Under the pieces are notes generated by a model. That model was not told the origin of the DNA and did no database searches. It worked only from the letters and a program-made list of their open reading frames with translations. DNA of 64,000 nucleotides from an uncultured Verrucomicrobiota bacterium (GTDB lineage Bacteria > Verrucomicrobiota > Verrucomicrobiia > Palsa-1439 > CAYGDP01). The stretch is taken from assembly GCA_964348665.1 (NCBI GenBank), contig CAYGDP010000002.1:110033-174032 (forward strand), read 5' to 3'. Shown piece after piece: positions 20,445 through 42,830 of this stretch (position 1 is the first letter of the stretch; every line of letters begins with the position of its first letter). The translations under genes were made by a program, and so were the position numbers.

Positions 20445-20454
20445 TTTTTTTCAT

Positions 20455-22505: not shown

Positions 22506-22865
22506 ACGACGCGCCGATTGCTTTGAGCGCTAGAAAAAGCTTGTGTAGTTGTGATGGGTTGAAGTAGTTTCGCAGCCTTGTTGGGGCTGGAAGAAAGCCC
22601 AACAAAAAAAGAGCGTCCCTATTGCCGAGGGATGTGGACAGTGAGGTCTAGAGGAGATCGTGAGCAACGCACGAAATCGAAAGACTGGGGGTTGGCAGCC
22701 CGATGGAAATACGGGCGCGCCAATTTTGGCGGGAGCTTTTCCCTTTTTCACTCAGGCCATTGGTTAACGTAGTCCTTCATTTTTCTTCCACCCCCAAGAA
22801 TCCACCAGAGACAGGCAACAATGAGCGTGTGTGCCGGGAGCATGAATTAGACTGTAGAAGCGACA
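22506..22865 (+). promoter_or_regulatory. 360-nt untranslated leader between the NusG paralog and the giant gene
   Basis: No credible ORF. Long leaders carry the recruitment sites of specialised NusG paralogs in characterised systems. Confidence 0.3.
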
Positions 22866-25800
22866 ATGGAAACGGGTCAGAACAATCGGGATCAAGCGGT
22901 GGCTATTGCGCTGAAGGCGTTCGAGGAGAACGCCTTGCGCGAGGCCGTCGCCGTCTCTACGCCACCGGCAGAAGCGGGGATCACGCTGCGGTCAATGTTC
23001 CGAGGAACAACGACCTTCCGGGCGCTGGCCAGAAAGATCGCGACTCTCCTGCCCCGGGTAGCGCCCCGCCGAGAAAGCAAGCTTTTGCGCAAACTTCGCC
23101 ACTTCCAACGTCAGAAGGCTTGCTTGTCGCCGGCTGAAAACCATCTTCAACATCCTTCCTCGACGACGTCTGTTCCTCCAAGAGCGAATCCTAGCGAACG
23201 ACGTGGTATGCCATCACGTTTCACCGCGCCAATCCCACTGACAAGCCGGCTCAAACACCTCGTCTTGGGGAAATGGGGAACGAAGGACAAATCGCCACGG
23301 CGCAAACGCGAGCATCGGTTTCGTCGTGACTTGCGCTACGACCAGTCATTTGTCGCCGAATCGGCGGAACCGCGGCTGATGGCCGGTAGTTTGGCTGGCC
23401 CCAACATCCTAACCGTGATTGACGGCGTGGAAGGAAACGAGGATTGGACGATGGGACTGCCGGAGATCGTCGCCCTTGGAAATAGCCAAGCCGTCCCGCA
23501 AACCAGCGAAGCTCCCCACGCAGCGTCATCCTCCACTAATCATACCGAACCTATAGCCTCAAATGTAACGCTCCCGGCAAATGCCGAGACGACTGCGCAA
23601 GCGATCCAGAGCCTTCAGGAAACAGGGGAGTTTAACCCAGAAGAAGATATTGGATTGCCGTTTCTTAGCTCCGATTCTACATCTAGCGCTTGGAATCCAC
23701 TGAACCCTGATGTGACGGAGGCGTTGCTGTTCCAACTGGCTGAACTGCAACAGCTATTTGCATCTCGGAACGCCTTGGATACAGTAGCGCCCAAGACCCT
23801 CATTGCGCCTTTGGCTCTCGAACCGACGAGCGCCCAAACTGATTCTCAAATTGACCCGTCTCTATTGGCCGGTGATTCGCAAACATCGAACAGTGAGCCG
23901 ACAACGACCGGTTCCGGGTCAACGCCCCAGACAATTTCTCCCGTAACCAATCCCCAATCCTCTCCGACCGGTGATTCACCCGGAAATCGGGACCCTCCGC
24001 CTGATCCTCCTCCACCGGGATTGATTCGCATGGCTTGCTCCGGCTGGACGCTGGTGGAAAGCGGCGGCTCGGAGAGCGGTCGCGGGAGTTTCACGTCTGA
24101 ATCCGGAAGTCTGGCCTTACGAGAAGGAGATTCGTTCCTGGTCTCCATCCAGCGAGCTTTCACCATTCCGCCCAATCCGGCCACGCTGACCTTCACTCTG
24201 GACGAGCTTACCTTTGATACGACCGATCCTGATTTTATCAATGACGCCTTTGAAGCGGCGTTCCTGGACGCGAGCGGGATTTCGCTAGTCCCCGTTATTG
24301 CGAGCAGCCGCGATTCCTTCTTTAACGCCACCGAAGGCGAGCCAGTTGCGCTCGGTTCAAAGACAACCTTCTCCGACCCAACTGTTACGCTCAATATCTC
24401 TTCCTTGCCAGCGGGCAGCACGGGCATTTTGGCCCTCCGTCTGGTCAATAACGACAGCGACGTCAACACGCTGGCCCGCATCCATTGCAATACCCCGCCT
24501 CAAGTAACGGCCAACGACGGTGCGGCCAACGAAGGACAATCGCTGGAGTTTGTCGGCACGTTTATTGATCCGGACATCGGTGACACCCATACGGCGCTCA
24601 TTTCTTGGGGGGATAACACCACCAGCGAAGGAGTTGTCACCGCAACTCAAGACGGTGGGACGGTGACGGCCAGCCACGTTTATGCCGATAACGGCAACTA
24701 CACCATCACCCTGACCGTTTCTGACAACAATGAGGGAGTCGGTAGCGACTCCGCGACCGCCACGATTGCCAACGTAGCGCCTGCCGTCACCGTCGGTCCG
24801 AACCAAACCCACAAAGACAAGGAACTGGCGTTGGATTTTACCATCGGCACGTTTAGCGATCCGGGCTTCACCAGTCCTACCGCCGGCACCGAGGAGACGT
24901 TCACCGCTCTGATTGATTGGGGTGACGGCACCACGCCAAGTGAAGGAACTCTCACCGTTGTGCAAGGCTCAGAGGGCGTGCTTACCACCGGCACGGTTAC
25001 GGCCAACCACGTTTATCAAGGTGGAGGTGTTTACACGGTAACTCTCACGGTCACCGATGACGACCTTGACTCTGGTTCGGCCAGTTTCCAAATTACGATC
25101 CTGCCCACCAAATTCTTCGTTGTGGATCAGGATCGTCGCTCCACGTTCCGTTATGACCGCGACGGCGGATTTGTCAGCGAGTCTGATCTGGGCCAGTTTG
25201 ATTCCCGCCCCCGTGGCGTCGCCAGCGACAGCACAGGCGATACTCTTTGGGTGATTGACGCCAATAAGACCGTCTATGTTTATACCGGCGAGGGTGCCTT
25301 GCTGGGTTCCTGGCAGGACCCCGGCTTAAACCAACCGCAGGACATCACGACTGACGGCACCGACATCTGGATTATCGACACTCCCGACAACGTTGTTTAC
25401 CGCTACTCCGGCGCCGCCAGCCGTCGTTCAGGTTCGCAAGCTCCTGACGCCAGTTTCCCCTTGGTCGTAGAGGATCGCAATCCCACCGGGCTGGTCACCG
25501 ACGGATCGACGTTTTGGGTGACGGATAATTTCGATCATCTAAACAAAGTTTTCGTGTATGACATGACCGGTCAGCTTCTTGGTTCGTGGCTATTGGACCC
25601 CCTCAATGTTGACCCTAGCGGCATTACCCTCAATCCCAACGGGGGCAGCGACCTCTGGGTGGTGGATCGTCTGCGGAATGCGGTTTTCCACTACGCTGAG
25701 TCGCAAGATGTGCGAAGCGGCTCTCTTCTTGTCACGGATACGTTTGCCCTGGCAAATAACAACCGTCACCCGGAAGGCATCGCCGATCCGGAAGTTTTCT

Positions 25801-28800
25801 GGAACGTGGATAGCGATGGATTTTGGGACGATGCCGCCAATTGGGATACCGGCACGGTTCCCAGCCCCACCGATGATGTCATTATTGATCGGCCCACCGC
25901 AAACCCAACCGTTACTATTCGATTTGGCGCTCAATCAGTCAATAGTGTCACCAGCCATGAAGCTCTTGTGTTGTCGGGCGGCACTTTGAGTGTTGCCGCT
26001 CCTTCCGAAGTTAATAACACCTTTACTTTGAGCGGCGGCGATCTGACTGGCGCAGGTCCATTTACAATTAATAACACCATGGATTGGATTGCAGGCCGCC
26101 TGGTCAGCGGCGGTACACTCGTCATTGCCAACACCGCCACGCTCAATCTCATCAACAGCAATGATAAAGACGTTGTTGGTTCTACGCTCAACAATTTCGG
26201 GACGGCCAACTGGAACACTGGCCGCATCCGCACTGGCTCCGGCTCGCTGATTGCCAACAGCGGGCTTTGGATCGCCCAAGCCAACAATCAGATCTCTAAT
26301 GATTATGGTAATGCGCAATCTACTTTCTCCAATAGCGGCAGCTTCCAACACATCGGTAGTTCTAGCAGCCACATCTTTATTGTATATGATAACAACGGCA
26401 GTACCGATGCCACCAACGGCACGCTGCACTTGCGTGCTGGTGGCACTTCCAGCGGCAGCTTCAATGCTGCCAGCCCCGGTGCTCTCTTCTTTGGCGAAGG
26501 CACTCACATCTTGAACGCCTCCTCCTCGGTCAGCGGGAGCGGCACGGTGGGGATTTTCTCAGGCAGCACCATTGTCAACGGCACGTGGAGCGTCAGTGGC
26601 ATCACTGATTTGCAGGGTGGCACCATTGCCTTTAACACCGCCGCCAGTACTGCCACTGGCATCTTCCGCGGTAGTGATCTAGCCGGCAGCGACAGTCTCA
26701 CCGTCACTGACACGATGGACTGGAGCAGCGGTCGGATCGTCAGCGGCGGCACGCTCATCATCGCCAACACCGCCACGCTCAATCTCATCAACAGCAATGA
26801 TAAGGACGTCGTCGGCTCGACGCTCAACAATTTCGGCGCGGTCAACTGGTTCGTTGGTCGCATCCGCACTGGCTCTGGCTCGCTGATTAGCAACAGCGGG
26901 CTTTGGATCGCCCAAGCCAACAACCAGATTTCTAACGACTACGGCAACGCCCAGTCCACCTTCTCCAACTCCGGCAGCTTCCAACACAGCGGCAGCGGCG
27001 ACAGCCACATCTTCATCGTCTATGACAACAACGGCAGTACTGATGTCACCAGCGGCACTTTGCATTTACGCGGCGGGGGCAACAGCAGCGGCAGTTTCAA
27101 CGCGCCGACCCCGGGCCGACTCCTCTTTGGCGAAGGCACGCACACTTTGAGCGCCAGTTCCTCCATCAGCGGCTCAGGCACGCTTGGCATCTTCAGTGGT
27201 AGCGCCGTTGTCAACGGTTCCTGGACAGTCAGCGGCATCACTGATCTGCAAGGCGGCACGATCAGCTTCAATACGGCGGCTTCTACAGTGACAGGCATCT
27301 TCCGTGGCAGCGATCTGGCTGGCAGCGGCAGCCTGACGGTGAGCAATGCGATGGACTGGAGCAGTGGTCGGGTCGTCAGTGGCGGCACGCTCATCATCGC
27401 CAACACCGCAACGCTCAATCTCATCAACAGCAACGACAAAGACGTCGTCGGTTCGACGCTCAACAATTTTGGGACTGTCAATTGGAATGCTGGCCGCATT
27501 CGCACTGGCTCCGACTCGCTGATTGCAAACAGCGGCCTCTGGATCGCCCAGGCCAATAACCAGATTTCTAACGACTATGGCAACGCTCAGTCCACCTTCT
27601 CCAACTCCGGCAGCTTCCAACACAGCGGCAGCGGTGATAGCCATATCTTCATCGTCTTTGACAACAACGGCAGTACTGATGTCACCAGTGGTACCTTGCA
27701 TTTACGCGGCGGGGGCAACAGTAGCGGCAGTTTCAACGCGCCGACCCCAGGCCGACTCCTCTTCGGCGAAGGCACTCACACCTTTAGCGCTTCCTCCTCG
27801 GTCAGTGGCAGTGGCACGCTTGGCATCTTCAGCGGTAGCGCCATTGTCAACGGTAGTTGGATGGTCAGTGGCATCACTGACCTACAAGGCGGTACAATCG
27901 CCTTTAACACAGCAGCCAGCACCATCACTGGCATCTTTCGTGGCAGCGATCTCACCGGCACTGGTTCTCTGACGGTGAGCAATACGATGGACTGGAGCAG
28001 CGGTCGAATCGTCAGCGGCGGCACGCTCACTATCGCTAACACCGCCACCCTCAGTCTCATCAACAACAATGACAAAGACATCGTCGGTTCAACGCTGGCC
28101 AATTTCGGGACGGTCAACTGGCTCGCTGGCCGCATCCGTACTGGTTCTGGTGCGCTGATTAGCAATAGCGGTCTCTGGATCGCCCAAGCCAACAATCAAA
28201 TCTCTAACGATTACGGCAATGCCCAATCCACTTTCTCCAACTCTGGCGGCTTCCAACATAGCGGCAGCGGCGACAGCCACATCTTCATCGTCTATGACAA
28301 CAACGGCTCTACCGATGTCCCCAGCGGCACGCTGCACCTGCGCGGTGGCGGCAATAGCAGTGGTAGTTTCAGCACCACCTCACCCAGCGCGCTCTTCTTT
28401 GGCGAAGGCACCCACACTCTAACCGCCACTTCCTCGGTCAGCGGATCAGGCACAGTGGGCATCTTTAGCGGCAGCGCCATTGTCAACGGTTCTTGGGTGG
28501 TCAGCGGCACGACAGATTTACAGGGCGGCACCATCGCCTTTAATACAGCCGCTTCCACGGTGACAGGAATCTTCCGTGGTAGCGATCTCACCGGCTCCGA
28601 CTCTCTCACCGTCACAGATACGATGGACTGGCAGCGAGGTCGAGTAGTCAGCGGCGGCACGCTTGTCATTGCCAACACCGCCACGCTCAATCTCATCAAC
28701 AGCAATGACAAAGACATCGTCGGTTCGACGCTCAGCAATTTCGGGACTGTCAATTGGAACGCTGGCCGCATCCGCACTGGTTCTGGTGCGCTGATTGCCA

Positions 28801-34800: not shown

Positions 34801-37800
34801 TCGATACCGCTCCCAGTGGGATGACGATGGATAGCCAGACAGGGCTTGTCTCGTACACCGCTACCGCCGGTCAGGTCGGCAATCAACCCGTCGCCATCAC
34901 GGTCGCCGACGGTCGCGGCGGATTCTTTACGCAGTCGTTTGATTTGCCCGTGGTGACCAGCGCCCCAAATGACGCGCCAACCATTGTCTCCGAGCCGCTC
35001 GGCCCCGCCGTCGTGGATGCGCCCTATCGTTACCAAGTGGAAGCCACAGACGTAAATGGCGACCTGATTACGTTCCAACTCACCACCGCTCCCAGCGGAA
35101 TGCTGATTGACTCCGCCACGGGACTGATCTCATGGACGCCGACCGCCGCCCAGGTGGGAACCCAGAATGTCGCCGTCTCGGCTAGCGACGGTCGGGGCGG
35201 CGTCGCCACGCAGTCGTTTGGGCTGCCCGTCGTGACGCAGACGATCGCCAATGAGCCGCCTTCCATCAGTTCCACGCCGCGCATCAATGCCGCTGTTGGT
35301 TCGCTCTATCTCTATGCGGTCGTGGCCACCGATCCCAATCATGACGTCCTGACTTATTCTCTGCCAATCGCCCCCGCAGGCATGACGGTGGATGCCGATG
35401 GTTTGATCCGTTGGACGCCGACGTCCGCTCAACTCGGACCGAACTTTGCGCGGCTGGAAATCTCTGATGGCCGAGGCGCTATTGTGGGACAAGAGTTTAA
35501 CGTCAACGTCACCACCGAGTTCACCAATCAGCCGCCGATTATCGTTTCCAACCCGACGGGTTCAGCTCTTGTGGGTGATCTCTATCGTTATGACGCTGTC
35601 GCCTCCGACCCCGATCATGACCCGCTCACATGGACGCTGGTCAGCGGCCCGGCGGGAATGTCCATGGATTCGCAGCTTGGCTCGCTGCGTTGGACGCCCA
35701 ACGCGGATCAAGCAGGATTCCAACCCGCTGTCATCCAAGTCAGCGATCCCTTCGGCGGTTCTTCAACCCAAAGCTTCACGGTGGCGGTTCGCTTGGTCAA
35801 TATCGCCCCCAGCATTACTTCCACGCCGCTGACCAGCGCCGTGGTCGGCAAGACGTATGTTTATGCCGTCCGCGCCACCGACCCTGAAAACGATCCGCTG
35901 GCCTTCTTCCTGACCAGCGCTCCGGCGGGAATGACCATGGACGCGGGGACGGGATTGATCCTGTGGACGCCGACCAGCGCGCAGGCGGGCAGCGCGAGCG
36001 TCTCGGTGGCGGTTTCCGACGGGCAAGCCTTCTCTTCCCAAAATTATTCCATCACCGTGCTGGCCACGGCGGAGAATGCCCCGCCGGTGGTGACCTCCAC
36101 CCCGCCGTTCTTTGCGACGGTGGATACGCTCTACACTTATATTGTCACCGCCGTTGACCCGGAATCCGAGCCGATCACGTTCACGCTGACCGAAGCTCCT
36201 GCGGGAATGACGCTCACCCCAGTCACCAATAACGAGTCACAAATCACTTGGACGCCGTCTGCGGCGGACATTGGTTTCCACACCGTCTCGATCGTGGTGA
36301 CCGACCCGCATGGCGCGCCGAGCGCGCAGCGCTTCACCATCGGTGTGGCTGATCCCAACAATCCCAATCCGCCGATTGCGGATATTTCCAACATCGCGGA
36401 GAACCAAGTGGTGCGGGATGGATTGTTTGATCTGGTTGGCATCGCCAATGATCTCGACCCGACCGACGCGGTCTCTTACCAGTTGAGCCTTTTCCTGCCC
36501 GATGGCACGTTTGTCCGAGACATGACGCCCGCTCCGCTCAACGCGCAAGGCTTCCATGTGGGTCGGGTTTCCGGCGGTGACAATCTTGCCACGCTGGACT
36601 TCACGATGTTGGAGAACGGCGTTTACCAACTCGATCTGACGGTGAGAGGCGGCAACGATTTCGACTCGGACACCGTCACCTTCGCGTTGGACAGCAATCT
36701 CAAGGTCGGCCAGTTCGGTTTCTCACAGCAAGATTTGGTGATTCCTGTCAGCGGCATCCCGCTCTCGGTGATTCGCACGTACAACTCGCTCAATCCGAGA
36801 GACGGAGATTTCGGGTTCTCGTGGACATACTCGATCAGCGACGTGGAGTTTACCACCGATGAGTTCCGCGTCCCTGCCGAGGACATTGATGGCACAAACT
36901 TTAGCCTGCGCGACGGTGGCGGGCGCAACATCACTCTCACGCTCCCCGATGGGCGGCGGACAACGTTCGCGTTCTCGCTGACGCCCGGTCTTTCGGACGC
37001 TTCGGGTGTGTCTTGTTTCTGTTACCAAGCTTTCTGGACGGCCCCGCCCGGCGTCTATTACACCCTCCAACCGACCGTCTCCAATAAGCTCATCCAACTC
37101 CCCGGCCTAACGCCGTTCTGGGAAGCGGCGGGCTTGGGCACGCCGATGGATGCGTTTGATTTCAAGAGCTTCATCCTGACGGGCAAAGACGGCGCGCGGG
37201 TTGATCGTTCCGGCCACCGCACCGACGGCTTCCCGCTGGGCCACACCGCCACCGGCGGCACGCGCTACGTCATCGAGCGGGAAGATTTGGGTGAACACTT
37301 TGTCCTCACCGAGGAAGGCGCGAGCCTCTTCGTCCACACTTATGGCGAGGGGAAACTCACACAAGTCATTGATCGAAATGGGAACACGACGGTTATTAGC
37401 AACGATCAAATCGCTTCCTTTAATGCCTTGGGTGACCCAATACGTTTGATTACATTCGACCGGAATCCTGAAGGTCGCATCGTAGCCATTACTGACCCAC
37501 TGGGCGCACAAATGACTTATGAATATGACTCTTTGGGCAACCTCACCTCCGCAACCGACCGAGTTGGCAATACCACCCAATATGTCTATGGAAATCCCAG
37601 TTTATCGCACTACATTACAGAGATAATAGATCCACTTGGCCGAACAACCGCTCGGACGGAATATGATGATAACGGACGCATCATCGCTACGATTGACGCG
37701 AAGGGCAATCGTGTGGAGTTCAACTACGACTTGTCGGGACACACGCAGACAATTTTCAACGGGCTTGGTATCCCGGCAATTTACACCTATGACACGCGTG

Positions 37801-40800
37801 GGAATGTAACGGAGAGAACACAGTTCCTCGATGGCATGGCGGTTGTCAATCATTGGATTTACGACGGCAACAATAACTTACTCACCCACGTTGACCCTCT
37901 GGGCAATACGCGCAACTACACATACGATTCACAAGGGAACGTGCTATCGGTGACTGATCCTCATGGCGCAGACCAGAATCCTGAGGAGTTCACAATACGT
38001 TACACCTATGACGAGTTCGGTAATAGCACCAGCGTCATGCTGCCGACTGGAGCAGCGGAATTTTCGACGTATGACTCCAATGGGAATCTGCTGGCAATCA
38101 CCAATGAGGACGCCGTGGTGTTGAGTTCATGGACGTTCGACGCGGTGGGAAACACGACCTCCGAGACCGATGCGTTCGGGACATTCTCCTACCAATATGA
38201 TTCGGTCGGCAACAATATCAGCTTCACTGATTCCATAGGCAATACGATCACCAGCACCTACGATGCGAACGGCCAGATCACGACGATGACGGATAACGGG
38301 GTGACCTCGACATTCCAATACGACGAAAATGGTCGGGAGACATCCTCGGATTACGGCAATGGTATCACGGCCAACTATGGTTACAGTTTCCAAGACGAAT
38401 GGACGACGCTGGATGCACCGACAATCGGACATCTTGGGCGCGAGTTTGACGAAACAGGGCGGTTAGGCGGCTGGGAGTTGACGAACGGCAGCACGATAGA
38501 TTTCGATTACAACGCGGCGGGGCAATTGACCCAACAGGTTGATCCAATGGGGAACGTGACGCAATATGAATATGATGATCTAGGTCGTGTGGTTAGCGTC
38601 GTAGACGTGGCGACGGGTGCCGTGACGACGAAGGAATATGATCTCGCAAACCGCGTGATTCGGACTACGGATGCAGAAGGAAACTCGCAAACTTTCAGCT
38701 ACGGACCGGATGGCCGGCTCGCAGCGACGAGTGATGCGAATGGAAATGTCTTATTATACAGCTACACATTATTCACCACGTCTGTGACCGATCCGTTGGG
38801 ACGGACGACGACAACGGAGTTCTCGGAGCTTGGTGTGCCGATCCGCACGATCAATCCCGATGGGACGGAATCGAGCGCGAGCTACTTGGATGGGGTGATT
38901 GATGACCCCGATGAGTTCCCCACGTCACTGGTGGATGAAGGCGGTCATGTGCGGTCGTACACGTATGACGACGTTGGCCGACTTTCGACGGCAACGGATT
39001 TAGGCGGGAGCGTTTACAATTATAATTACGGGTTAGATGGTCTTTCTTCTATCCTTGGTCCCACCAGCGAGACGCTTGGCTTCACGTACGATATTATTGG
39101 AAATCGCAGCACGATGACCTTTGGGGATGGGGGCGTGCAGAGCTATTCCTACGGGGCGAACAATTTACCTTCTGTGGTAACGCTGCCGTCGGGCGAAACG
39201 ATTAGCCTCCTCTACGATGACGCAGGTCGCACGACCTCGCGTATGACTTCCGAGGGAGAATCTGCAACATACTCCTACAACGCCAATGACCAAGTTACCG
39301 TGCAGCAGGATAACACGGGCATTACCAGTTACACGTATGACGAAATCGGAAATTTGCAGCGCATTGATTATCCGACCACTGCGAGCGTCGAATACGGATA
39401 TGATTTGCTGGGACGCGTGATCTCTGTGACGGCCAAGGAATCTCCGACTGCGTTAGGTTACACAACGCTTTATCACTATAACGAAATCGGGAATCTCGAC
39501 CAAGTGACCGACCCGTTGGGTGGGGTGACGACGTATGAATATGATGAGGTTTATCGGCTAGGCAAACGAACATTGCCCAACGGAATCGAGACGACCTACG
39601 AATACAATGACAGCGATCAAGTGACAGTCATCATCCACAAGGATAGCGGCAGCAATGTGATTGCATCGCTGCGCTACGAGCGTCAGGGAATCGGTGAGCC
39701 AAGCAAGATCACGCGCGAAGACGACTCGTATGTGTTGCTCGGTTACGATAACGCGCTACGCATGACCAGCGAAGCCTATTTTGATCCCAACAACGTGCTT
39801 ATCGAGCAAATCACTTATCAATATGACGACGCGGGAAATCGGGTCGGCAGAACGACGGCGTTGGGAGCGAGCACATACAACTACCAGACGGGCTTCCGTC
39901 TCACAGCGGTGGACGGGCCAGGCAGCGATGATGAATCCTACAGCTATGATTCGGATGGAAACACAACCGCGATCAGCCGCGACGGATTGAATCTGATGCT
40001 AACTTATGACAGCTACGGACACGTGACAGGTGTGCAAGGGCTGGCGGGCGGCGCGACAGAAACGTATACCTATGACGCTATGGGTCGGCGCGTGGGAATA
40101 GCAAACGGAGCGGGTGACATTAGGAACTTCCTCGTCGCGCCGACATTGGCAGATGGACTTGAACAACCGTATCTGGTGACCGACGTCAGCGGCGCGGTTC
40201 AGATGGGCTACGCGTACGTAGGCGAGACGCCGTTGCTGCGCTTCGATGCCAGCGGCCAGCCAGTTTATTACCTTGACGACGCGATGGGATCAGTGATCGG
40301 ATTGGCGAACGCCAGCGGTCAAGGTGTTGCAAGCTTCCAATACGACGGCTTCGGAAATCCGCGAGTGGTAACCGGCGACTCTGCTGCACCCGCGACCATC
40401 GGTGGCGACTTCCGTTTTCACGGACAATGGCTTGACATCTCCACTCAGCTATATTCCATGCGTGCTCGCACTTACGACCCACAGACCGGTCGATTCCTCA
40501 GTCGCGACCCCATCGAAATGGACCAGTTCACACCCGAGATGATGAATTTCTACATCTTCGCAAACTCAAATACGCACCTCTTTCGCGATCCGAGTGGGTT
40601 GTTTTCACTAATCGAATTAAATTTGACGACACTAATCCAAGGTTTTCTACAAGGTATACGCGCGCTAGCTGTACATGAAGCTAAGCAGTATGTTAAGCAA
40701 CAGGCGTTTGGAGCGGCTGGTAGTTTTTTTGTTAACTCGATCGCTTCGTTCGTGCCAGGGCTCCATGAATTTGGAAGTAACCTGTCTTCGATAACTGGCA

Positions 40801-41399
40801 CGGACTTTGAAGGGATAATCAAGAATACGATCTGTGGTTTAGCCGAGCCGATTTCTTCTATTATTCCAATCGGGGTTAGATTCCAAGTGAAGGTCCTTGC
40901 ACAAAATACGCCTTCTCCCGAGGGGATTCTTCGTGCAGGAACACCGGTTTCACCAGGAATAGGTTGTAGCGGTTCCTCTGAAGCTTATAGGAATGCTTCA
41001 AATCCATTTCTTAGGCTCTCGTTTACGGGAGGGAAAAAGCAAAGGTTCAACTCCGCCGATTTTGTATTTCGGAATGGCGATGTCGTTAGATACTCTACGA
41101 GAAACCATCCCGTACCCCAGAGGCCTAAAGGCTGGGCAATAGGTGATTCAAAACGAACCGCGGTGACTGCCTATCTGTCAGCGAAAACGAATTCAACGCA
41201 GTGGCGCGCTATCACGGCCTACGCTAGTTTATATGGTAGCCAACAATACATACCTTTCGCTTTTTACGTGACTTTGTTACGAAACAGCCAGAATGCAACC
41301 TTTGGAAGGCCACAGGCAATTATAATGCAGAGTAGTGCTCTGCGTAGTGGGACGGTAGTTTCAGTTTTTAGCTTATTCCCCGTGCCAAGTATTTATTGA
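22866..41399 (+). CDS. giant 6177-aa multidomain adhesin-like RHS/YD-repeat polymorphic toxin
   Basis: Single uninterrupted ORF of 18,534 nt. Domain order: P/S/T-rich N-terminus; PKD-like domains; beta-propeller-like region; 6 x 212-aa tandem repeats; Calx-beta ('DYATKDGTATSAHDYVATTGSLTFAPGE'); second propeller-like region; 12 cadherin-like/putative-Ig repeats; one SdrD-B-like domain; YD repeats ('YEYDSLGNLTSATDRVGNTTQYVY...'); RHS core 'YSMRARTYDPQTGRFLSRDP...RDPSGL'; about 265-aa C-terminal module. Confidence 0.9.
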   Translation: METGQNNRDQAVAIALKAFEENALREAVAVSTPPAEAGITLRSMFRGTTTFRALARKIATLLPRVAPRRESKLLRKLRHFQRQKACLSPAENHLQHPSSTTSVPPRANPSERRGMPSRFTAPIPLTSRLKHLVLGKWGTKDKSPRRKREHRFRRDLRYDQSFVAESAEPRLMAGSLAGPNILTVIDGVEGNEDWTMGLPEIVALGNSQAVPQTSEAPHAASSSTNHTEPIASNVTLPANAETTAQAIQSLQETGEFNPEEDIGLPFLSSDSTSSAWNPLNPDVTEALLFQLAELQQLFASRNALDTVAPKTLIAPLALEPTSAQTDSQIDPSLLAGDSQTSNSEPTTTGSGSTPQTISPVTNPQSSPTGDSPGNRDPPPDPPPPGLIRMACSGWTLVESGGSESGRGSFTSESGSLALREGDSFLVSIQRAFTIPPNPATLTFTLDELTFDTTDPDFINDAFEAAFLDASGISLVPVIASSRDSFFNATEGEPVALGSKTTFSDPTVTLNISSLPAGSTGILALRLVNNDSDVNTLARIHCNTPPQVTANDGAANEGQSLEFVGTFIDPDIGDTHTALISWGDNTTSEGVVTATQDGGTVTASHVYADNGNYTITLTVSDNNEGVGSDSATATIANVAPAVTVGPNQTHKDKELALDFTIGTFSDPGFTSPTAGTEETFTALIDWGDGTTPSEGTLTVVQGSEGVLTTGTVTANHVYQGGGVYTVTLTVTDDDLDSGSASFQITILPTKFFVVDQDRRSTFRYDRDGGFVSESDLGQFDSRPRGVASDSTGDTLWVIDANKTVYVYTGEGALLGSWQDPGLNQPQDITTDGTDIWIIDTPDNVVYRYSGAASRRSGSQAPDASFPLVVEDRNPTGLVTDGSTFWVTDNFDHLNKVFVYDMTGQLLGSWLLDPLNVDPSGITLNPNGGSDLWVVDRLRNAVFHYAESQDVRSGSLLVTDTFALANNNRHPEGIADPEVFWNVDSDGFWDDAANWDTGTVPSPTDDVIIDRPTANPTVTIRFGAQSVNSVTSHEALVLSGGTLSVAAPSEVNNTFTLSGGDLTGAGPFTINNTMDWIAGRLVSGGTLVIANTATLNLINSNDKDVVGSTLNNFGTANWNTGRIRTGSGSLIANSGLWIAQANNQISNDYGNAQSTFSNSGSFQHIGSSSSHIFIVYDNNGSTDATNGTLHLRAGGTSSGSFNAASPGALFFGEGTHILNASSSVSGSGTVGIFSGSTIVNGTWSVSGITDLQGGTIAFNTAASTATGIFRGSDLAGSDSLTVTDTMDWSSGRIVSGGTLIIANTATLNLINSNDKDVVGSTLNNFGAVNWFVGRIRTGSGSLISNSGLWIAQANNQISNDYGNAQSTFSNSGSFQHSGSGDSHIFIVYDNNGSTDVTSGTLHLRGGGNSSGSFNAPTPGRLLFGEGTHTLSASSSISGSGTLGIFSGSAVVNGSWTVSGITDLQGGTISFNTAASTVTGIFRGSDLAGSGSLTVSNAMDWSSGRVVSGGTLIIANTATLNLINSNDKDVVGSTLNNFGTVNWNAGRIRTGSDSLIANSGLWIAQANNQISNDYGNAQSTFSNSGSFQHSGSGDSHIFIVFDNNGSTDVTSGTLHLRGGGNSSGSFNAPTPGRLLFGEGTHTFSASSSVSGSGTLGIFSGSAIVNGSWMVSGITDLQGGTIAFNTAASTITGIFRGSDLTGTGSLTVSNTMDWSSGRIVSGGTLTIANTATLSLINNNDKDIVGSTLANFGTVNWLAGRIRTGSGALISNSGLWIAQANNQISNDYGNAQSTFSNSGGFQHSGSGDSHIFIVYDNNGSTDVPSGTLHLRGGGNSSGSFSTTSPSALFFGEGTHTLTATSSVSGSGTVGIFSGSAIVNGSWVVSGTTDLQGGTIAFNTAASTVTGIFRGSDLTGSDSLTVTDTMDWQRGRVVSGGTLVIANTATLNLINSNDKDIVGSTLSNFGTVNWNAGRIRTGSGALIANNGLWTAQANNQISNDYGNAQSTFSNFGSFQHTGTSSSHIFIVYDNDGSTQVTSGTLHLRGGGNSSGSFNATSPGALFFGEGTHTLSATSSVTGSGTLGIFTGSTVVNGSWTVSGTTDLQGGTISFNTAATTVNALLRGSDVAGSGSLTVSGTMSWTAGRIVNGATLIGTHGATLNLIGGNEDIVGSTLNNDGTVNWTSGRIRTGFGTHINNDGLWIAQANNAIVNDYGGAQSTFSNSGIFRQQGSGTTTIAIDFINFGSVEILTGTLSFTGAYTQTGGVTALEGGSLSSTQTLTIQGGVLTGIGTIFANVVNGGELGPGASIGMDVGILNLAGNYTQTTTGSLHIQLFDVGAGIGFDQFRVAGAVTLEGGINLALESTIPLSGEIIFLDNDATDGVTGTFVGLPQNTFVMLNDDLYQLSYSGGSGNDVSLQRVVGITITNVSLPEGDLGITDFIFTVSLDQPGTTSLTLDYATKDGTATSAHDYVATTGSLTFAPGEVTKPITVPVNGDNASATDETFFVEIVNRILVFSPNTTRIGIGTILNDDNELYDAEERFLFTTTEDFHEGTLSSNLTATQVPDEMGLMAQFPFFPYVNIAASARGTIIRLDANTGEILGEYLTAPDGMGRNPSATAVDLLGNVWVANRDESSDGKGSVTRIALVIGGTRGIKNPDGSFTPDPGGQYLQGPFLYSTAIDRDGDGLIKTSFGLGNILAWNNAGGTDSLGGVFTAEDELIINYTRVSGTRTGTVAIDGNNDLWVGGVGDHDHEKISGVTGQPIPGTQFNTGRAGFGGLVDRNGVLWSSNSLIRFVPNVNPPPAGTSASIGNNYGIATDPRTGHIWITNGGIGCSYGLFELDSDGRVLNRYPQPFPSQGVAVDANSHVWVAQMFGSKVWHLAPDPNDPTRHITVGFVTGFHEVNALAVDPNGKIWVAERGNRASRIDPSAGDIGAGGYPVGAIELSVALGLGAGPDNYSDMTGFVSHSLVPQGVWTHTIDGEQDRTGWGVVVVDATIPVGTSMVVQVRAADSLSDLASLPYITIQSGQILHDVAGRFLQLKVTVVSEDDATRPSVQAISIYKLPPPTITVSSPANGERFDAGSSILITGLAASGRPFIAETGTQIPNRIATVTANGTTVEALDLIGNFFTRVTLLPGENVYEFTAYDAFGQSVTATLTLTGVQVTAGDVDFAQLTDVSRSFVSEYGRTSFTESADVLYADLDSIRSIGSFYVDAPFLLGVTNFSDSSVQLADSDGVTPDGIAYYDLSSLVIDGSIAPGELLGSQTLAFFNPNRVRFTYDLVFLGRLNRAPAFTTVPDLSVALGQTYSYLADAADPDVNPLSFSILSGPAAMTIESATGAVTWTPITSDLGTHSITLQVADGRGGFGRQHYLLSVTAVPPNRPPVFTSIPTVVGNVNLTYNYLATATDTDNDALIFSLLSGPQGLSVHANGLVTWTPTADQLGVQNVVLTVSDGHGGDAFQSFAIFVSQEPGNHPPVIVTQPITTGFAGTAYTYDVDALDADNDSLTYSLTTFPAGMTIDGMTGLISWNPTLSDVGNHVVTVRVSENRGGIGEQSFFLSVQGQAPAQIRGAKFNDLDGNGVRASEEPGLANWAIYLDQNGNGRRDFGESVRLTDVNGNYSFDNLLPGDYLVAEEAQRGFSQTAPLGGTYAVSVANGQIVAGLDFGNKQVAVVEEQPPFFVTEPITEAIASQTYLYEAAATDPNFDALSFDLLVKPAGMLVDPVTGVVIWEPTAAQVGVHDVVLRVSDGNGGSDEQSFQIIVSPANNPPSITSVPFGPALVGLLYQYQVRAQDADGDALTFQLVTAPSGMTLSFLTPQSSILSWTPTFSQIGTHAVAITVADGRGGMDAQSFDLAVAVANDAPAITSTPTAPAVVGFPYQYQARASDPNGDPLTFRLDVAPSGMVIDHLSGLLTWTATADQVGTNQVSIAVTDGRGGIATQSFGLPTVTEAVNDAPQITSSPPAPAVVGFPYRYQVEASDPNGDPLTFSLDTAPSGMTMDSQTGLVSYTATAGQVGNQPVAITVADGRGGFFTQSFDLPVVTSAPNDAPTIVSEPLGPAVVDAPYRYQVEATDVNGDLITFQLTTAPSGMLIDSATGLISWTPTAAQVGTQNVAVSASDGRGGVATQSFGLPVVTQTIANEPPSISSTPRINAAVGSLYLYAVVATDPNHDVLTYSLPIAPAGMTVDADGLIRWTPTSAQLGPNFARLEISDGRGAIVGQEFNVNVTTEFTNQPPIIVSNPTGSALVGDLYRYDAVASDPDHDPLTWTLVSGPAGMSMDSQLGSLRWTPNADQAGFQPAVIQVSDPFGGSSTQSFTVAVRLVNIAPSITSTPLTSAVVGKTYVYAVRATDPENDPLAFFLTSAPAGMTMDAGTGLILWTPTSAQAGSASVSVAVSDGQAFSSQNYSITVLATAENAPPVVTSTPPFFATVDTLYTYIVTAVDPESEPITFTLTEAPAGMTLTPVTNNESQITWTPSAADIGFHTVSIVVTDPHGAPSAQRFTIGVADPNNPNPPIADISNIAENQVVRDGLFDLVGIANDLDPTDAVSYQLSLFLPDGTFVRDMTPAPLNAQGFHVGRVSGGDNLATLDFTMLENGVYQLDLTVRGGNDFDSDTVTFALDSNLKVGQFGFSQQDLVIPVSGIPLSVIRTYNSLNPRDGDFGFSWTYSISDVEFTTDEFRVPAEDIDGTNFSLRDGGGRNITLTLPDGRRTTFAFSLTPGLSDASGVSCFCYQAFWTAPPGVYYTLQPTVSNKLIQLPGLTPFWEAAGLGTPMDAFDFKSFILTGKDGARVDRSGHRTDGFPLGHTATGGTRYVIEREDLGEHFVLTEEGASLFVHTYGEGKLTQVIDRNGNTTVISNDQIASFNALGDPIRLITFDRNPEGRIVAITDPLGAQMTYEYDSLGNLTSATDRVGNTTQYVYGNPSLSHYITEIIDPLGRTTARTEYDDNGRIIATIDAKGNRVEFNYDLSGHTQTIFNGLGIPAIYTYDTRGNVTERTQFLDGMAVVNHWIYDGNNNLLTHVDPLGNTRNYTYDSQGNVLSVTDPHGADQNPEEFTIRYTYDEFGNSTSVMLPTGAAEFSTYDSNGNLLAITNEDAVVLSSWTFDAVGNTTSETDAFGTFSYQYDSVGNNISFTDSIGNTITSTYDANGQITTMTDNGVTSTFQYDENGRETSSDYGNGITANYGYSFQDEWTTLDAPTIGHLGREFDETGRLGGWELTNGSTIDFDYNAAGQLTQQVDPMGNVTQYEYDDLGRVVSVVDVATGAVTTKEYDLANRVIRTTDAEGNSQTFSYGPDGRLAATSDANGNVLLYSYTLFTTSVTDPLGRTTTTEFSELGVPIRTINPDGTESSASYLDGVIDDPDEFPTSLVDEGGHVRSYTYDDVGRLSTATDLGGSVYNYNYGLDGLSSILGPTSETLGFTYDIIGNRSTMTFGDGGVQSYSYGANNLPSVVTLPSGETISLLYDDAGRTTSRMTSEGESATYSYNANDQVTVQQDNTGITSYTYDEIGNLQRIDYPTTASVEYGYDLLGRVISVTAKESPTALGYTTLYHYNEIGNLDQVTDPLGGVTTYEYDEVYRLGKRTLPNGIETTYEYNDSDQVTVIIHKDSGSNVIASLRYERQGIGEPSKITREDDSYVLLGYDNALRMTSEAYFDPNNVLIEQITYQYDDAGNRVGRTTALGASTYNYQTGFRLTAVDGPGSDDESYSYDSDGNTTAISRDGLNLMLTYDSYGHVTGVQGLAGGATETYTYDAMGRRVGIANGAGDIRNFLVAPTLADGLEQPYLVTDVSGAVQMGYAYVGETPLLRFDASGQPVYYLDDAMGSVIGLANASGQGVASFQYDGFGNPRVVTGDSAAPATIGGDFRFHGQWLDISTQLYSMRARTYDPQTGRFLSRDPIEMDQFTPEMMNFYIFANSNTHLFRDPSGLFSLIELNLTTLIQGFLQGIRALAVHEAKQYVKQQAFGAAGSFFVNSIASFVPGLHEFGSNLSSITGTDFEGIIKNTICGLAEPISSIIPIGVRFQVKVLAQNTPSPEGILRAGTPVSPGIGCSGSSEAYRNASNPFLRLSFTGGKKQRFNSADFVFRNGDVVRYSTRNHPVPQRPKGWAIGDSKRTAVTAYLSAKTNSTQWRAITAYASLYGSQQYIPFAFYVTLLRNSQNATFGRPQAIIMQSSALRSGTVVSVFSLFPVPSIY
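26079..29894 (+). repeat. six near-identical 636-nt (212-aa) tandem coding repeats inside the giant gene
   Basis: The motif 'atggactggagcag[c/t]ggtcg[g/a]atcgtcagcgg' recurs at 26715, 27351, 27987 and 28623, always 636 nt apart. Diverged copies sit at 26079 and 29259. Confidence 0.85.
32700..36355 (+). repeat. 12 cadherin-like/putative-Ig domain repeats (about 92 aa each), interrupted by one SdrD-B-like domain at about 33530-33840
   Basis: Recurrent '..PP.ITS.P...A.VG..Y.Y...A.DPD.D.L.F.L...P.GM.ID..TGL.SWTPT..Q.G...V...V.DGRGG...Q.F' units starting near 32700, 32985, 33255, 33860, 34130, 34420, 34690, 34965, 35250, 35530, 35800 and 36075. Confidence 0.7.
36596..36679 (+). repeat. 84-nt segment duplicated at 43110-43193 (one mismatch)
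   Basis: 'gacttcacgatg[t/c]tggagaacggcgtttaccaactcgatctgacggtgagaggcggcaacgatttcgactcggacaccgtcac' occurs in both places. Flanks are about 80% identical (36360-36440 vs 42906-42990). Confidence 0.85.
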
Positions 41400-41601
41400 A
41401 AGGCGGCTTATGTCGGTAACACTATGGACATCGGTAGCACTCGATTTTTGGACATACGAGCCGGGCCATGGTCACAATGACAAATTTACCGAATTAAAAT
41501 CCGGTTCGTTGGATGCCCTCATAAGGTAAGGACAAAGAGCATGCAGCACATAAATGCAGAGTATCTTTGTAAAGATTAACCGTACTAAGGATAAAATAAG
41601 A

Positions 41602-42776: not shown

Positions 42777-42830
42777 TTGTTGTTGTGGCTCAGGAGATTG
42801 TGGTGCGGTGGCAGTTTTTGAGATAACGCG

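Follow-up and report, generated by a model that had tools for sequence, protein, structure and literature searches.

What does a bacterium do with a single 18.5-kb gene whose product resembles an adhesin over most of its length and a toxin at its end? Mechanistic work on RHS toxins has been concerned nearly exclusively with T6SS cargo or with Sec substrates of Gram-positive bacteria. The gene considered here lies in a 64-kb stretch of DNA (the window, all of which was analyzed) and consists of one uninterrupted open reading frame with an ATG start (22866-41399, on the + strand like every other feature described below) that encodes 6177 amino acids, with exactly the coordinates and length given in an earlier note on this DNA. 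In this one frame, about 4,600 aa of adhesin-type modules are followed by a complete RHS cocoon and a 265-aa tip. The earlier note had described the product as a giant adhesin-like RHS polymorphic toxin with a tip of different origin, and every testable point of that description held. Several questions are raised by such a protein. How does it leave the cell? What does its tip do, and how does the producer survive it? How is so large a gene expressed and moved? The reading that we favor, with a probability of roughly three in four, is that the gene, as judged from its sequence, encodes a surface-displayed, T6SS-independent RHS polymorphic toxin on a tRNA-Pro integrase island. The type of weapon is one already familiar from bacteria, here at an unusually large size and with a toxin domain outside the curated libraries that were searched.

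Adhesin-Type Modules

About 75% of the protein is made up of adhesin-type modules. Among the domains named in the earlier note, PKD, Calx-beta, He_PIG/Big_9, SdrD_B and RHS all passed the cut-offs in HMM scans, whereas both propeller-like regions stayed below them. The series starts with a P/S/T-rich low-complexity linker (23421-24032, aa 186-389; P 12%, S 12% and T 11% over aa 180-389), for which a Pfam scan and a homolog search were both empty. It is followed by a conserved domain of about 150 aa (24033-24494) with homologs of 39-54% identity (alignment A3; 75 metagenome loci), which occurs also in planctomycete-type large proteins; no Pfam family was found for it in the scan, and a beta-sandwich fold is only a guess. 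Next come two PKD domains (24495-25106; PF18911 PKD_4, two stretches, E 4.3e-13; PF00801) and the first propeller-like region (25107-26015, about aa 748-1050), which has repeated "G.xxD...lWVxD" blades and a single, weak HMM match, to NHL at E 0.3.

The six tandem 212-aa repeats of the earlier note proved to be real: they are glycine-rich, occupy 26034-29843 (families D1-D6), and in a repeat search were spaced by 636, 636, 636, 636 and 633 nt with 72-87% identity. TRF overlooked this array because its period exceeds 500. The repeats correspond to no Pfam family, the one match being Pertactin at E 0.13, and have no PDB sequence match; to picture them as a beta-helix-like stalk is only a guess. 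A Calx-beta domain (30159-30374; PF03160, matched in two overlapping scans at E 5e-13 and 7.6e-14) and the second propeller-like region (30543-31895, about aa 2560-3010) follow, the latter being SMP-30/NHL-like with two sub-cut-off matches (PF08450 SGL, 3.8e-5; PF01436 NHL, 6.5e-3). The series continues with about 12 He_PIG/Big_9/Cadherin_5 Ig-like domains (32733-36365; He_PIG, 12 stretches, E 8e-103; Big_9, 1e-85; repeat families D7, D8 and D14), among which one SdrD_B domain is embedded (33552-33776, E 7.8e-9). These Pfam matches are what the earlier note had called 12 cadherin-like/putative-Ig repeats and one SdrD-B-like domain.

N-terminus and a Possible Export Signal

A canonical signal peptide is absent, as had been claimed: the best 12-aa hydrophobic window within the first 260 aa reaches only 1.27 on the Kyte-Doolittle scale. 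That part of the earlier description stands, but the N-terminus is not featureless and the start is perhaps M115. An export-signal-like module (23286-23420) consists of a basic stretch (11 K/R in 30 aa), a degenerate LEPR-XLL-like motif at aa 164-172 (AESAEPRLM) and a weakly hydrophobic segment (aa 171-185), the most hydrophobic within the first 260 aa. This segment is weaker than that of a normal signal peptide. The motif resembles [LFIVM]ExLE[PDE]R, which 15 related loci have close to their start, and the same basic/motif/hydrophobic layout lies at most about 50 aa from the start in two homologs (P0001 and P0002) and 15 metagenome loci. The motif is placed as far in as aa 164 unless translation begins at M115. 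For membership in the LEPR-XLL family (NF012209), a score of 17 bits or more is required at the very N-terminus; the giant protein was unmatched by this HMM even at E <= 10, and one relative (L072) scores 14.7 bits. The layout, being that of planctomycete giant proteins, points to an export signal of atypical form and to M115, not M1, as the start. The annotated start is thus probably about 114 codons too far upstream, and translation from M115 (nt 23208) would give 6063 aa.

RHS Cocoon and the DPSGL Boundary

The RHS cocoon (36684-40601) was recognized with Pfam, NCBIfam and solved Rhs structures. It begins with DUF6531 (PF20148; nt 36696-36920, aa 4611-4685; 34.5 bits against a cut-off of 24.1, E 2.6e-8), which we assume to be the plug closing the shell. 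The YD repeats reported earlier are evident from 15 stretches of RHS_repeat (PF05593; 321 bits, E 2.6e-98) and from phmmer matches of the RHS part to the solved Rhs cocoons 7q97, 8h8a, Tse15 and Tse5 (E down to 3.7e-38; over all the solved Rhs structures matched, 4e-38 to 1e-25). At the end of the shell is the Rhs-associated core (nt 40410-40601; TIGR03696, 59.8 bits, cut-off 32.5), and the match runs to DPSGL (aa 5908-5912), in agreement with the claim of a core terminating in RDPSGL. Its motifs RARxYDxxTGRFLSRDP and DPxGL, in the stretch RARTYDPQTGRFLSRDP...FRDPSGL, align with those of 12 relatives; in the longer motif PxxxxDPxGL the first P is replaced here by T. In close relatives of the RHS clade, too, the shell is preceded by Ig arrays of the He_PIG/Big_9 type.

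The composition of the gene changes at this boundary. For GC3 the values are 0.72 (adhesin part), 0.63 (RHS part) and 0.40 (C-terminal module), and the maximum-likelihood change-point was placed after aa 5912 (nt 40602; support interval aa 5893-5924) with a log-likelihood ratio of 18.3, as compared with 8.8 for the largest in 300 shuffles. The GC drop that had been noticed right after DPxGL is thus located precisely, and it is not an effect of amino-acid composition. The C-terminal tip has an evolutionary origin separate from that of the rest of the protein.

The C-terminal Tip

The tip (40602-41396, 265 aa) consists of a helical N-terminal subdomain of about 65 aa and a PD-(D/E)xK nuclease-like core. 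Homologous tips, with a length of 225-255 aa and placed after DPxGL, are present in no fewer than 40 RHS proteins; when 1.84 billion representatives were searched exhaustively with phmmer, 32 matches were obtained at E <= 1e-3, the best at 2e-10. In an alignment of 32 tips (A1), 90% or more of the sequences have D153 and K184, all have Q200, and conservation of E70 and D/E182 was read off the alignment columns; the present copy retains all of E70, D153, D182-x-K184 and Q200. The helical subdomain and two cysteines, C78 and C122, are also conserved in the family. The fold is predicted to be restriction-endonuclease-like, with an alpha-beta-beta-beta-alpha-beta core resembling known nucleases. 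Because of the conserved E...D...(D/E)xK...Q motif and this predicted fold, the tip is probably a nuclease of the PD-(D/E)xK type, a point on toxin type that the earlier note had left open.

The 32 members have no consistent Pfam match at E <= 1 and no PDB sequence match, and the family is absent from Pfam, NCBIfam and PDB sequences. Assignment to a described Tox-REase family was rejected for those with Pfam models, none of which matched; such models are known only for Tox-REase-2, -3, -5, -7 and -9, not for -1, -4, -6, -8 and -10. Restriction-endonuclease-fold tips set alongside for comparison were CdiA-CT of EC869 (4g6u), CdiA-CT of Y. pseudotuberculosis (4zqu) and the Tox-REase-5 protein TseT (9oz0).

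Ankyrin Genes Downstream of the Tip

How would the producer be protected? Directly downstream are two genes, missed in the earlier note, for ankyrin-repeat proteins, both candidates for immunity: ank1 (41554-42138, 194 aa; Ank_2 and other Ank Pfam families, NCBIfam ankyrin) and ank2 (42135-42776, 213 aa; Ank Pfam and NCBIfam), which overlaps ank1 by 4 nt. They are paralogs with 36% identity, and their GC3 (0.46 and 0.42) may be set beside that of the tip (0.40). At five other RHS ends with this toxin family (L008/L009, L010 with two, L128 and L129), located on four unrelated contigs, an Ank gene likewise comes directly next, and since the pairing recurs in this way ank1 and ank2 are probably immunity genes. 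The distance from tip to Ank gene is within about 60 nt in six of seven informative cases; in the exception, a tip with a weak family match (P0007) precedes a Peptidase_M23 gene instead. Beyond this locus, the pair occurs on metagenome contigs that are cyanobacterial or unassigned, and Verrucomicrobia have tips of this family too. Imm-Ank is a recognized immunity class, reported from planctomycetes as well (Zhang et al., 2012; PMC3482391).

A Probable Island

The setting of the gene is one that the earlier note had missed. At 20370-20445 there is a tRNA-Pro gene (CGG; ARAGORN; Rfam tRNA, 68.9 bits), which probably marks the left boundary of an island: the sequence of a second assembly is the same as that of the window from the first base of the tRNA on, with another flank upstream. 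Starting 77 nt past the tRNA is a gene for a tyrosine recombinase/integrase of 406 aa (20523-21743; PF00589 Phage_integrase, Xer-type NCBIfam below cut-off). Directly upstream of the giant gene and co-oriented with it lies a gene for an RfaH/UpxY-like NusG paralog of 180 aa (21963-22505; PF02357 NusG). Because of this combination of tRNA-Pro, integrase and RfaH-like gene, the setting is, on gene content, probably a genomic island. Mobile-element genes run on to the end of the window, and no second copy of the tRNA-Pro 3' end is present within the 64 kb.

The NusG paralog scores 97.9 bits with RfaH (TIGR01955; cut-off 144.5), 81.6 with UpxY (NF033644; 100), 41.5 with LoaP (125) and 41.2 with NusG (135.7), the RfaH and UpxY matches covering nearly its full length. 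All of these are below cut-off, and assignment to the RfaH, UpxY or LoaP subfamily was rejected in favor of a NusG-family paralog only. Its relatives in Verrucomicrobia and Acidobacteria are located upstream of co-oriented multi-gene stretches; an ORF of more than 3000 aa follows in one of 40 cases, and conversely none of 82 related loci has an RfaH-like gene upstream. In the leader, no Rfam match was obtained and ops-like matches were at chance level; neither an ops nor a JUMPstart element turned up.

A further feature not recorded earlier is a 315-bp direct repeat that brackets the RHS-toxin-immunity block. Its upstream copy is the pre-RHS Ig-like domain of the giant protein (36369-36683; repeat search families D9 and D13, pairwise alignment), and its downstream copy (42904-43196; repeat search and alignment) lies inside an ORF of 123 aa (42831-43202). 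The final 100 nt or so are near-identical between copies, and the homology of the downstream copy ends exactly where an RHS unit would start. The C-terminal half of the pre-RHS domain, together with DUF6531, is found also ahead of RHS units at two other loci (L128 and L011). One Logan unitig (L004) corresponds exactly to 36650-43152 and hence breaks inside the direct repeat at both ends. A more far-reaching proposal would be that the island is a self-contained, recently mobile weapon module comprising the integrase, the RfaH-like antiterminator, the immunity genes and a giant RHS toxin that would be exported by way of a planctomycete-specific LExR-type signal and of no known toxin secretion system, in which an entire 6-kb RHS-toxin-immunity unit, and not the tip alone, is exchangeable through recombination at the pre-RHS domain and the 315-bp repeat is the scar; in this full form we regard it as rather unlikely.

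Alternative Explanations

Could the giant frame be an artefact of short-read assembly, an RHS cassette having been fused to a separate adhesin gene via the repeat of about 100 nt, or the 636-nt copies having been miscounted? The underlying sequences are short reads from metagenomes, and Logan unitigs (k=31) end exactly at the start of the 636-nt array and at the join, which sits at the near-identical repeat (36585-36683 and 43098-43196). This repeat is, however, shorter than the final k of 141 (as the contig names with their "k141_" prefix suggest), and the frame stays open through the junction. Relatives have the identical order of pre-RHS domain half, DUF6531 and RHS, and the 636-nt copies, being merely 72-87% identical, are resolvable by an assembler. 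In addition, the 6177-aa product is predicted in two independent MEGAHIT assemblies (ERZ27247820 k141_690336 and ERZ27247830 k141_161423), whose DNA, compared over the gene's first 9.6 kb, shows 0 mismatches there. An artefact thus has only a very slight probability. If the frame is intact, the abundance of adhesin-type modules still invites the reading that attachment or aggregation is the main task of the protein, which would then be a structural adhesin or surface fiber; its RHS-tip part would, like that of metazoan teneurins, be a remnant that has decayed or been put to another use, and would not act as a toxin. Genes for giant surface proteins are a known feature of planctomycetes (PMC5177795), bacterial teneurin-like proteins (TLPs) have been discussed as cell-cell interaction molecules (PMC13018210), and the first P of PxxxxDPxGL is lost in this protein. 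Against such decay, the signature residues E70, D153, D182, K184 and Q200 of the tip are kept, the Rhs core motifs are intact, and two co-oriented ankyrin genes of low GC3 stand directly 3', in a pairing that recurs elsewhere; a dead toxin would have no need of immunity genes, and we consider this reading improbable.

Accepting the toxin, one may ask whether it is an effector of the T6SS or of another dedicated machine whose genes are elsewhere in the genome. T6SS cargo makes up the majority of the characterized Rhs toxins from Gram-negative bacteria. T6SS Rhs proteins are also the giant protein's best sequence matches in PDB, and the analysis covers one contig, leaving room for secretion genes at other places. 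As the earlier note had stated, T6SS, PAAR, VgrG and TPS genes are lacking nearby (none, nor any of the CdiB family, among the genes called and scanned across the 64-kb window), and neither the giant protein nor the window contains a PAAR, VgrG-binding, DUF4150 or chaperone-related domain. An adhesin N-terminus of 4,600 aa looks incompatible with spike loading, and relatives in the RHS clade bear He_PIG/Big_9 arrays ahead of the shell, like Sec-dependent RHS toxins (PMC3482391). A T6SS route is accordingly very improbable in our judgment, and a surface-displayed, T6SS-independent toxin remains the preferred reading.

A Model for the Proposed Giant Toxin

An outline of how the surface-displayed toxin may work is as follows. 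The NusG paralog would keep RNA polymerase processive over the 18.5-kb gene and the immunity genes. The protein would be exported from the cytoplasm via the atypical N-terminal module, with its basic stretch, LExR-type motif and weak hydrophobic segment, and form a long stalk on the surface of the cell. The aspartyl-protease core of the Rhs part would cut after DPSGL, so that the nuclease would be free inside the cocoon. On contact with a neighbor, the tip would be released, enter and degrade nucleic acid, its helical N-terminal subdomain possibly aiding entry; we infer this contact-dependent delivery from the adhesin-like architecture. In the producer, the ankyrin proteins would bind and neutralize the toxin. 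The toxin-immunity cassette, possibly the entire RHS unit, may have been gained by recombination.

The locus provides a clear case from the PVC superphylum of an RHS toxin with a 4,600-aa adhesin stalk and no recognizable toxin secretion adaptor. The N-terminal motif, common to planctomycete giant proteins, may be an entry point to the export and display of giant surface proteins, and the restriction-endonuclease-fold tip with helical leader and ankyrin immunity is a candidate pair missing from the curated libraries searched. The link of an RfaH-like gene with a tRNA island would show how so large a gene is moved and expressed as a unit.

Comparison with Known Systems

The shell and core are homologous to those of T6SS Rhs effectors (RhsA, RhsP, Tse5, Tse15 and Photorhabdus Rhs1; 7q97, 8h8a, 8uy4, 8cp6; E 4e-38 to 5e-30), with which the giant protein shares the logic of encapsulation and C-terminal cleavage. 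Assignment to that class was rejected: the protein has no PAAR/VgrG-interacting N-terminus, and the window contains no chaperone or T6SS genes. Two-partner secretion of the CdiA type was likewise rejected, as there is no TPS domain, FHA repeat or CdiB/TpsB in the protein or window. Bacterial TLPs combine N-terminal adhesin/Ig modules with a YD shell around a polymorphic toxic C-terminal domain, are displayed on the surface without a T6SS, undergo autoproteolysis at PxxxxDPxG and have associated immunity genes (Raoelijaona et al., 2026; PMC13018210; PDB 9pt5, 9ifo). They are defined by a contiguous superfold of FN-plug, NHL and YD-shell plus a TIP domain, and have been reported from six phyla, Planctomycetota not among them (PMC13018210). 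The C-terminal part of the present shell matches the TLP structure 9pt5 at E 1e-25; unlike in TLPs, the propeller-like regions are separated by more than 1,600 aa from the shell, which starts downstream of them at aa 4607, and the plug is DUF6531. Assignment to TLPs was rejected with Pfam models, since PF25023 TEN_YD-shell scores 35.9 bits (cut-off 50) and the NHL/SGL matches are weak and distant from the shell.

The downstream genes resemble Imm-Ank (Zhang et al., 2012) in being small ankyrin-repeat proteins encoded directly 3' of a polymorphic toxin. Here they are two tandem paralogs with a toxin of the restriction-endonuclease-fold family, whereas in the tables of PMC3482391 Imm-Ank is partnered with HNH-fold Tox-AHH and Tox-GH-E. 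As compared with Tox-REase-1 to -10 (Zhang et al., 2012), the tip has an extra helical N-terminal subdomain with C78 and C122, and it is paired with ankyrin immunity, a pairing that PMC3482391 lists for none of them. Like RfaH, UpxY and LoaP, the upstream gene product belongs to the NusG family and heads a very long transcription unit; its link to a giant toxin gene is known from this island alone.

WapA of Bacillus subtilis is a Sec-dependent, surface-associated Rhs/YD toxin with a DPxGL-linked nuclease-type tip and an immunity gene directly 3', and its delivery is presumed to require contact. The giant protein differs from WapA-type toxins in having neither a canonical signal peptide nor a cell-wall-binding domain, and in its approximately 4,600 aa of mixed adhesin modules with a LEPR-XLL-like N-terminus. 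It is alike in having a putatively T6SS-independent RHS cocoon, a polymorphic nuclease-type tip after DPxGL and immunity candidates downstream, and a "T2SS/Sec + RHS" class of polymorphic toxins has been described (Zhang et al., 2012; PMC3482391).

The Giant RHS Gene and the Compositional Break at Its Tip

The giant ORF (22866..41399, plus strand) encodes 6177 aa and contains no internal stop. The window is carried on an ENA metagenome contig of 246 kb (ERZ27247820 k141_690336), and the 6177-aa product is also called in a second assembly (ERZ27247830 k141_161423, 118 kb); the DNA of the two assemblies has no mismatch over the first 9.6 kb of the giant gene, the part compared. HMM scans of the product matched two PKD domains, Calx-beta, 12 Ig-like stretches of the He_PIG/Big_9/Cadherin_5 type and one SdrD_B domain, as well as DUF6531, 15 RHS repeats and a weak TEN_YD-shell tail in the RHS part. 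The match to TIGR03696 (Rhs_assc_core) stops at DPSGL (aa 5908-5912), and the RHS part resembles the sequences of solved Rhs cocoons with E-values down to 4e-38. Six 212-aa repeats, spaced by 636, 636, 636, 636 and 633 nt and 72-87% identical, have neither a Pfam family nor a PDB sequence match. TRF did not report this 636-nt array because the period exceeds 500. An earlier note had described one uninterrupted 6177-aa ORF with PKD, Calx-beta, Ig-type and SdrD-B modules, 6 x 212-aa tandem repeats and a YD/RHS core ending in DPSGL, all of which is borne out by these results; its two propeller-like regions stand as SGL/NHL similarities, both of which fall below threshold.

The 265-aa C-terminal tip (40602..41396) differs from the rest of the gene in GC content at third codon positions (GC3). 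The host genes dnaE, PSCyt and DUF1501 have a GC3 of 0.67-0.68. Along the giant ORF, the value is about 0.60 in the N-terminal part (~1,050 aa), 0.71-0.77 from the repeats through the Ig array, 0.63 in the RHS part and 0.40 in the tip, and it is 0.46 and 0.42 in the two downstream ankyrin-repeat genes, ank1 and ank2. The GC drop is not an effect of amino-acid composition, because third-position GC shows the same drop. A two-segment likelihood over aa 5300-6177, compared with 300 shuffles, placed the change-point after aa 5912, the L of DPSGL (LLR 18.3 versus a shuffle maximum of 8.8; support interval aa 5893-5924), and therefore the claim that GC falls sharply exactly after the DPxGL boundary is correct. 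The tip, ank1 and ank2 are a single compositional unit. GC3 also varies along the giant gene apart from this break: the first ~1213 aa have ~0.61, the stretch from there to aa ~4824 has ~0.73, and most of the RHS unit has ~0.59-0.63. This pattern suggests that the whole gene is of mosaic origin.

The Tip Family and Its Predicted Fold

The tip family surfaced only once the end of the RHS part was included in the query. The tip alone had no match in a word-indexed set of 5.8 billion proteins, and its single-sequence AF2 model was unusable (pLDDT 33). With a query consisting of the tip and the 412 aa of RHS before it, 567 RHS proteins were found, many at 92-100% query coverage, and at least 40 of them carry a homologous 225-255-aa tip directly after DPxG(L/M). 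The named sources of these tips include Verrucomicrobia and cyanobacteria (Synechococcaceae, Kamptonema and Pseudanabaena). Among 1.84 billion cluster representatives, searched exhaustively with phmmer, 32 matches reached E <= 1e-3 (best 2e-10). The family alignment A1 consists of 32 tips that are 21-31% identical to that of the giant ORF. Its conserved features are a helical leader, F(T/S)xxEIN...IQ...R...AK...P, two cysteines and the signature E ... (R)PDF(I/V) ... LIG(D/E)xK ... QWxAIxxYA, of which the tip of the giant ORF retains E70, D153, D182, K184 and Q200.

What kind of toxin could this be? Searches with the tip against Pfam, NCBIfam and PDB sequences gave no consistent family, nor did Pfam over the 32 A1 members, and the A1 profile had no PDB sequence match. 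When A1 was used as the input, AF2 produced a tip model with a pLDDT of 74.7 and a pTM of 0.72, in which the core (residues ~65-260, mostly 80-94 pLDDT) adopts an alpha-beta-beta-beta-alpha-beta topology with D153 and D182/K184 on adjacent strands. A Foldseek comparison with the PDB found nothing significant. With moderate confidence, the tip is predicted to be a PD-(D/E)xK nuclease-type toxin belonging to a family without a curated model, a status that is relative to the modelled families. To our knowledge, Pfam models exist for Tox-REase-2, -3, -5, -7 and -9 only. The other five (Tox-REase-1, -4, -6, -8 and -10) are defined only in Zhang et al. (2012; PMC3482391), and the tip may correspond to one of them.

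Ankyrin Genes as Candidate Immunity Genes

Two genes for ankyrin-repeat proteins, ank1 (41554-42138, 194 aa) and ank2 (42135-42776, 213 aa), lie on the plus strand downstream of the giant ORF and are co-oriented with it. Their products are paralogs, with 36% identity over 155 aa (E 3e-26). The pairing of such a gene with a tip of the A1 type is recurrent: an ankyrin gene starts within ~60 nt after an RHS protein or orphan fragment that carries one. The homologous protein P0013 is followed by an ankyrin protein of 304 aa (loci L008/L009), P0018 by one of 511 aa and P0006 by one of 429 aa, and in the cyanobacterium Kamptonema (locus L010) one of 337 aa follows P0053 and one of 239 aa follows a 436-aa fragment (A1 match 1e-65). 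The sole exception is P0007, a weak and partial family match, after which a Peptidase_M23 gene is found instead. Imm-Ank is a recognized immunity class and has been reported in planctomycetes; the tables of Zhang et al. (2012; PMC3482391) list it with the HNH-fold toxins Tox-AHH and Tox-GH-E and contain no pairing with a REase-fold tip.

Two of these loci, L008 (JGI 3300036045) and L010 (GCA_010672865.1), are classic orphan arrays: downstream of a main He_PIG/Big_9 plus RHS gene lie several RHS-end fragments, every one of which has a separate tip and ankyrin gene. L008 also contains one truncated fragment with only the first 32 positions of the tip family.

A Direct Repeat Flanking the RHS, Tip and Ankyrin Block

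The segment 36369-36683, which encodes the Ig-like domain immediately before DUF6531, recurs at 42904-43196, right after ank2, where it sits in a 123-aa ORF (42831-43202). The two copies are about 76% identical over the first ~100 nt, diverged with indels in the middle and near-identical over the last ~100 nt. Their homology ends precisely where the RHS unit starts (TVTF|ALDSN); beyond this point, the copy at 42904-43196 continues for two codons and then meets a stop. A k=31 Logan unitig corresponds exactly to 36650-43152, with both of its ends breaking within the repeat, and the C-terminal half of the pre-RHS domain, together with DUF6531, also precedes the RHS units of two relatives. The simplest reading makes the downstream copy a 5' stub from another RHS unit, and the 123-aa ORF is probably an RHS-cassette stub or a recombination scar. 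Such a stub would have been left when the present RHS, tip and ankyrin block arrived or was rearranged via homologous recombination. A second GC3 step (0.73 to 0.59) at the end of the repeat was considered and rejected: the change-point falls at aa ~4824, ~215 aa inside the RHS unit, and thus GC3 gives no independent support for the exchange of a whole cassette.

The Putatively Mobile Island

On its left side, the island begins with tRNA-Pro(CGG) (20370-20445), a tyrosine integrase that starts 77 nt after it and a 180-aa NusG paralog, which is closest to RfaH and UpxY and scores below every subfamily cut-off. From the ank genes to the window end, only genes of the mobile-element type are found. 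These include a second tyrosine integrase (47808-48950, minus strand) and, within 47808-64000, PRiA4_ORF3, a DUF87 ATPase, two methyltransferases, SSB and RadC, as well as an ATP-dependent DNA ligase with a WGR domain (59045-60202), a protein with ArdC-N and zincin MPTase-PolyVal domains (60619-61668) and a 567-aa deaminase-domain protein (62002-63705, minus strand). The last has a cytidine-deaminase domain, matches MafB19-like and Bd3614-like toxin deaminase models at aa 278-462 and is possibly another toxin-type gene of the island. Four ORFs lie just downstream of the ank genes (43404-43900 and 43897-45195 on the minus strand, 45304-46632 on the plus strand). They comprise a remnant-like 102-aa ORF with a faint match to the CHC2 primase zinc finger, a 64-aa ORF, a 432-aa predicted lipoprotein that fits no family and a 442-aa protein resembling alpha/beta-hydrolases (DUF7379, weak).

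The island spans at least 43 kb and has no right border within the window. The 3' end of the tRNA does not recur to mark one there: 29-mer and 16-mer probes designed to detect an attR duplicate of this tRNA-Pro end match only the tRNA itself. In the second assembly (L002), the DNA is mismatch-free to the window over 12.1 kb from the first base of the tRNA. The preceding stretch (L002:1-238 versus window 20132-20369) is unrelated, with a 56-aa ORF replacing the end of the PIG-L gene, and the dnaE/PIG-L flank of that sample belongs to a separate contig whose end, by coordinate arithmetic, lies just past the tRNA. There are thus two left contexts for one island, a finding that fits either recent mobility or strain variation.

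Nearby genes include the PSCyt1/PSCyt2/PSD1 plus DUF1501 gene pair and N_methyl proteins, which we consider planctomycete-typical, and the N-terminal domain of the giant ORF has a homolog in Gemmataceae (P0001). The organism was assigned to the planctomycetes on the strength of these features. The island is near the replication-origin region (window 1-20300, L006): dnaA and dnaN are just beyond the left end of the window, and dnaE (14372-17980, minus strand) lies in the same region left of the island. AsmA/DUF748 genes are also near it.

A leader of 360 nt separates the NusG paralog from the start of the giant gene. Is the RfaH-like gene a conserved partner of giant genes? This possibility was rejected. 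Most of its 40 relatives in species-representative genomes have several co-oriented ORFs of 250-900 aa downstream, and an ORF of >3035 aa follows just one of the 40 (L042); among 82 loci related via the N-terminal domain or the RHS tip, neither the RfaH-like gene nor a homologous integrase was found (0/82 each). The coupling of the RfaH-like gene to the giant gene is therefore one of position only. Neither JUMPstart nor any other element was detected when the leader was scanned with Rfam, scans for promoters and terminators were unconvincing, and three matches to the E. coli ops sequence at two mismatches, versus ~0.7 expected by our estimate, are not meaningful. A weak terminator-like hairpin with a stem of 5 pairs and a T-run (GGGAGCTTTTCCC TTTTTCACTC) is present in the leader at 22731-22753 (plus strand) and could be relevant to antitermination.

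N-Terminus and Export

How does such a protein leave the cell? As had been noted earlier, no canonical signal peptide is found in the giant protein, and its surroundings offer no known route: Pfam scans of the protein revealed no PAAR and no TPS family, and T6SS, VgrG, CdiB and TpsB genes are absent across the 64-kb window. A conserved domain occupies residues 390-543; three other proteins share it at 39-54% identity, and it occurs in 75 metagenome loci. In 15 related loci, a strongly basic stretch followed by the motif [LFIVM]ExLE[PDE]R occurs near the start of the open frame, and in the inspected relatives the motif is no more than ~50 aa from a plausible start and precedes a hydrophobic run. 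One relative scores 14.7 bits with NCBIfam NF012209 ('LEPR-XLL'; cut-off 17), an HMM that the giant protein fails; a literature search for the name turned up two incidental mentions only. The giant protein has the same elements in the same order: 11 K/R within 30 aa, then AESAEPRLM at aa 164-172 and then aa 171-185, the most hydrophobic segment within its first 260 aa. From this order, the N-terminal module is a putative atypical export signal of this planctomycete giant-protein class. Codons 1-114 of the ORF as annotated (22866-23207) are without homologs and place the LExR-type motif at aa 164. Because the motif is N-terminal in the inspected relatives, M115 (nt 23208) is a plausible translation start, which would give a protein of 6063 aa.

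Proposed Mechanism and Comparison with Known Systems

An outline of the proposed process is as follows. The RfaH-like protein would, judging from its position, act in antitermination. The giant protein would be displayed at the surface on a long stalk and undergo autoproteolysis after DPSGL. Contact with a target cell would lead to release and entry of the tip, possibly aided by its conserved helical leader, and the nuclease would kill the target cell, while binding by ankyrin protein would neutralize the toxin in the producer.

By every feature tested, the giant protein is not a T6SS Rhs effector. Functionally, it presumably comes close to Sec-dependent surface RHS toxins such as WapA. Like the giant protein, the recently described bacterial teneurin-like proteins (TLPs) combine an adhesin N-terminus with a YD shell around a polymorphic toxin and are accompanied by immunity genes, but the giant protein is without the contiguous superfold of FN-plug, NHL and YD-shell that defines them, and the phyla reported for TLPs do not include Planctomycetota (PMC13018210). 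The giant protein is thus best filed as a variant of an already known kind, the RHS polymorphic toxin, distinguished by its unusually large size, an uncurated, putatively REase-fold tip with Imm-Ank, an N-terminus of planctomycete type and its location on a putatively mobile island.
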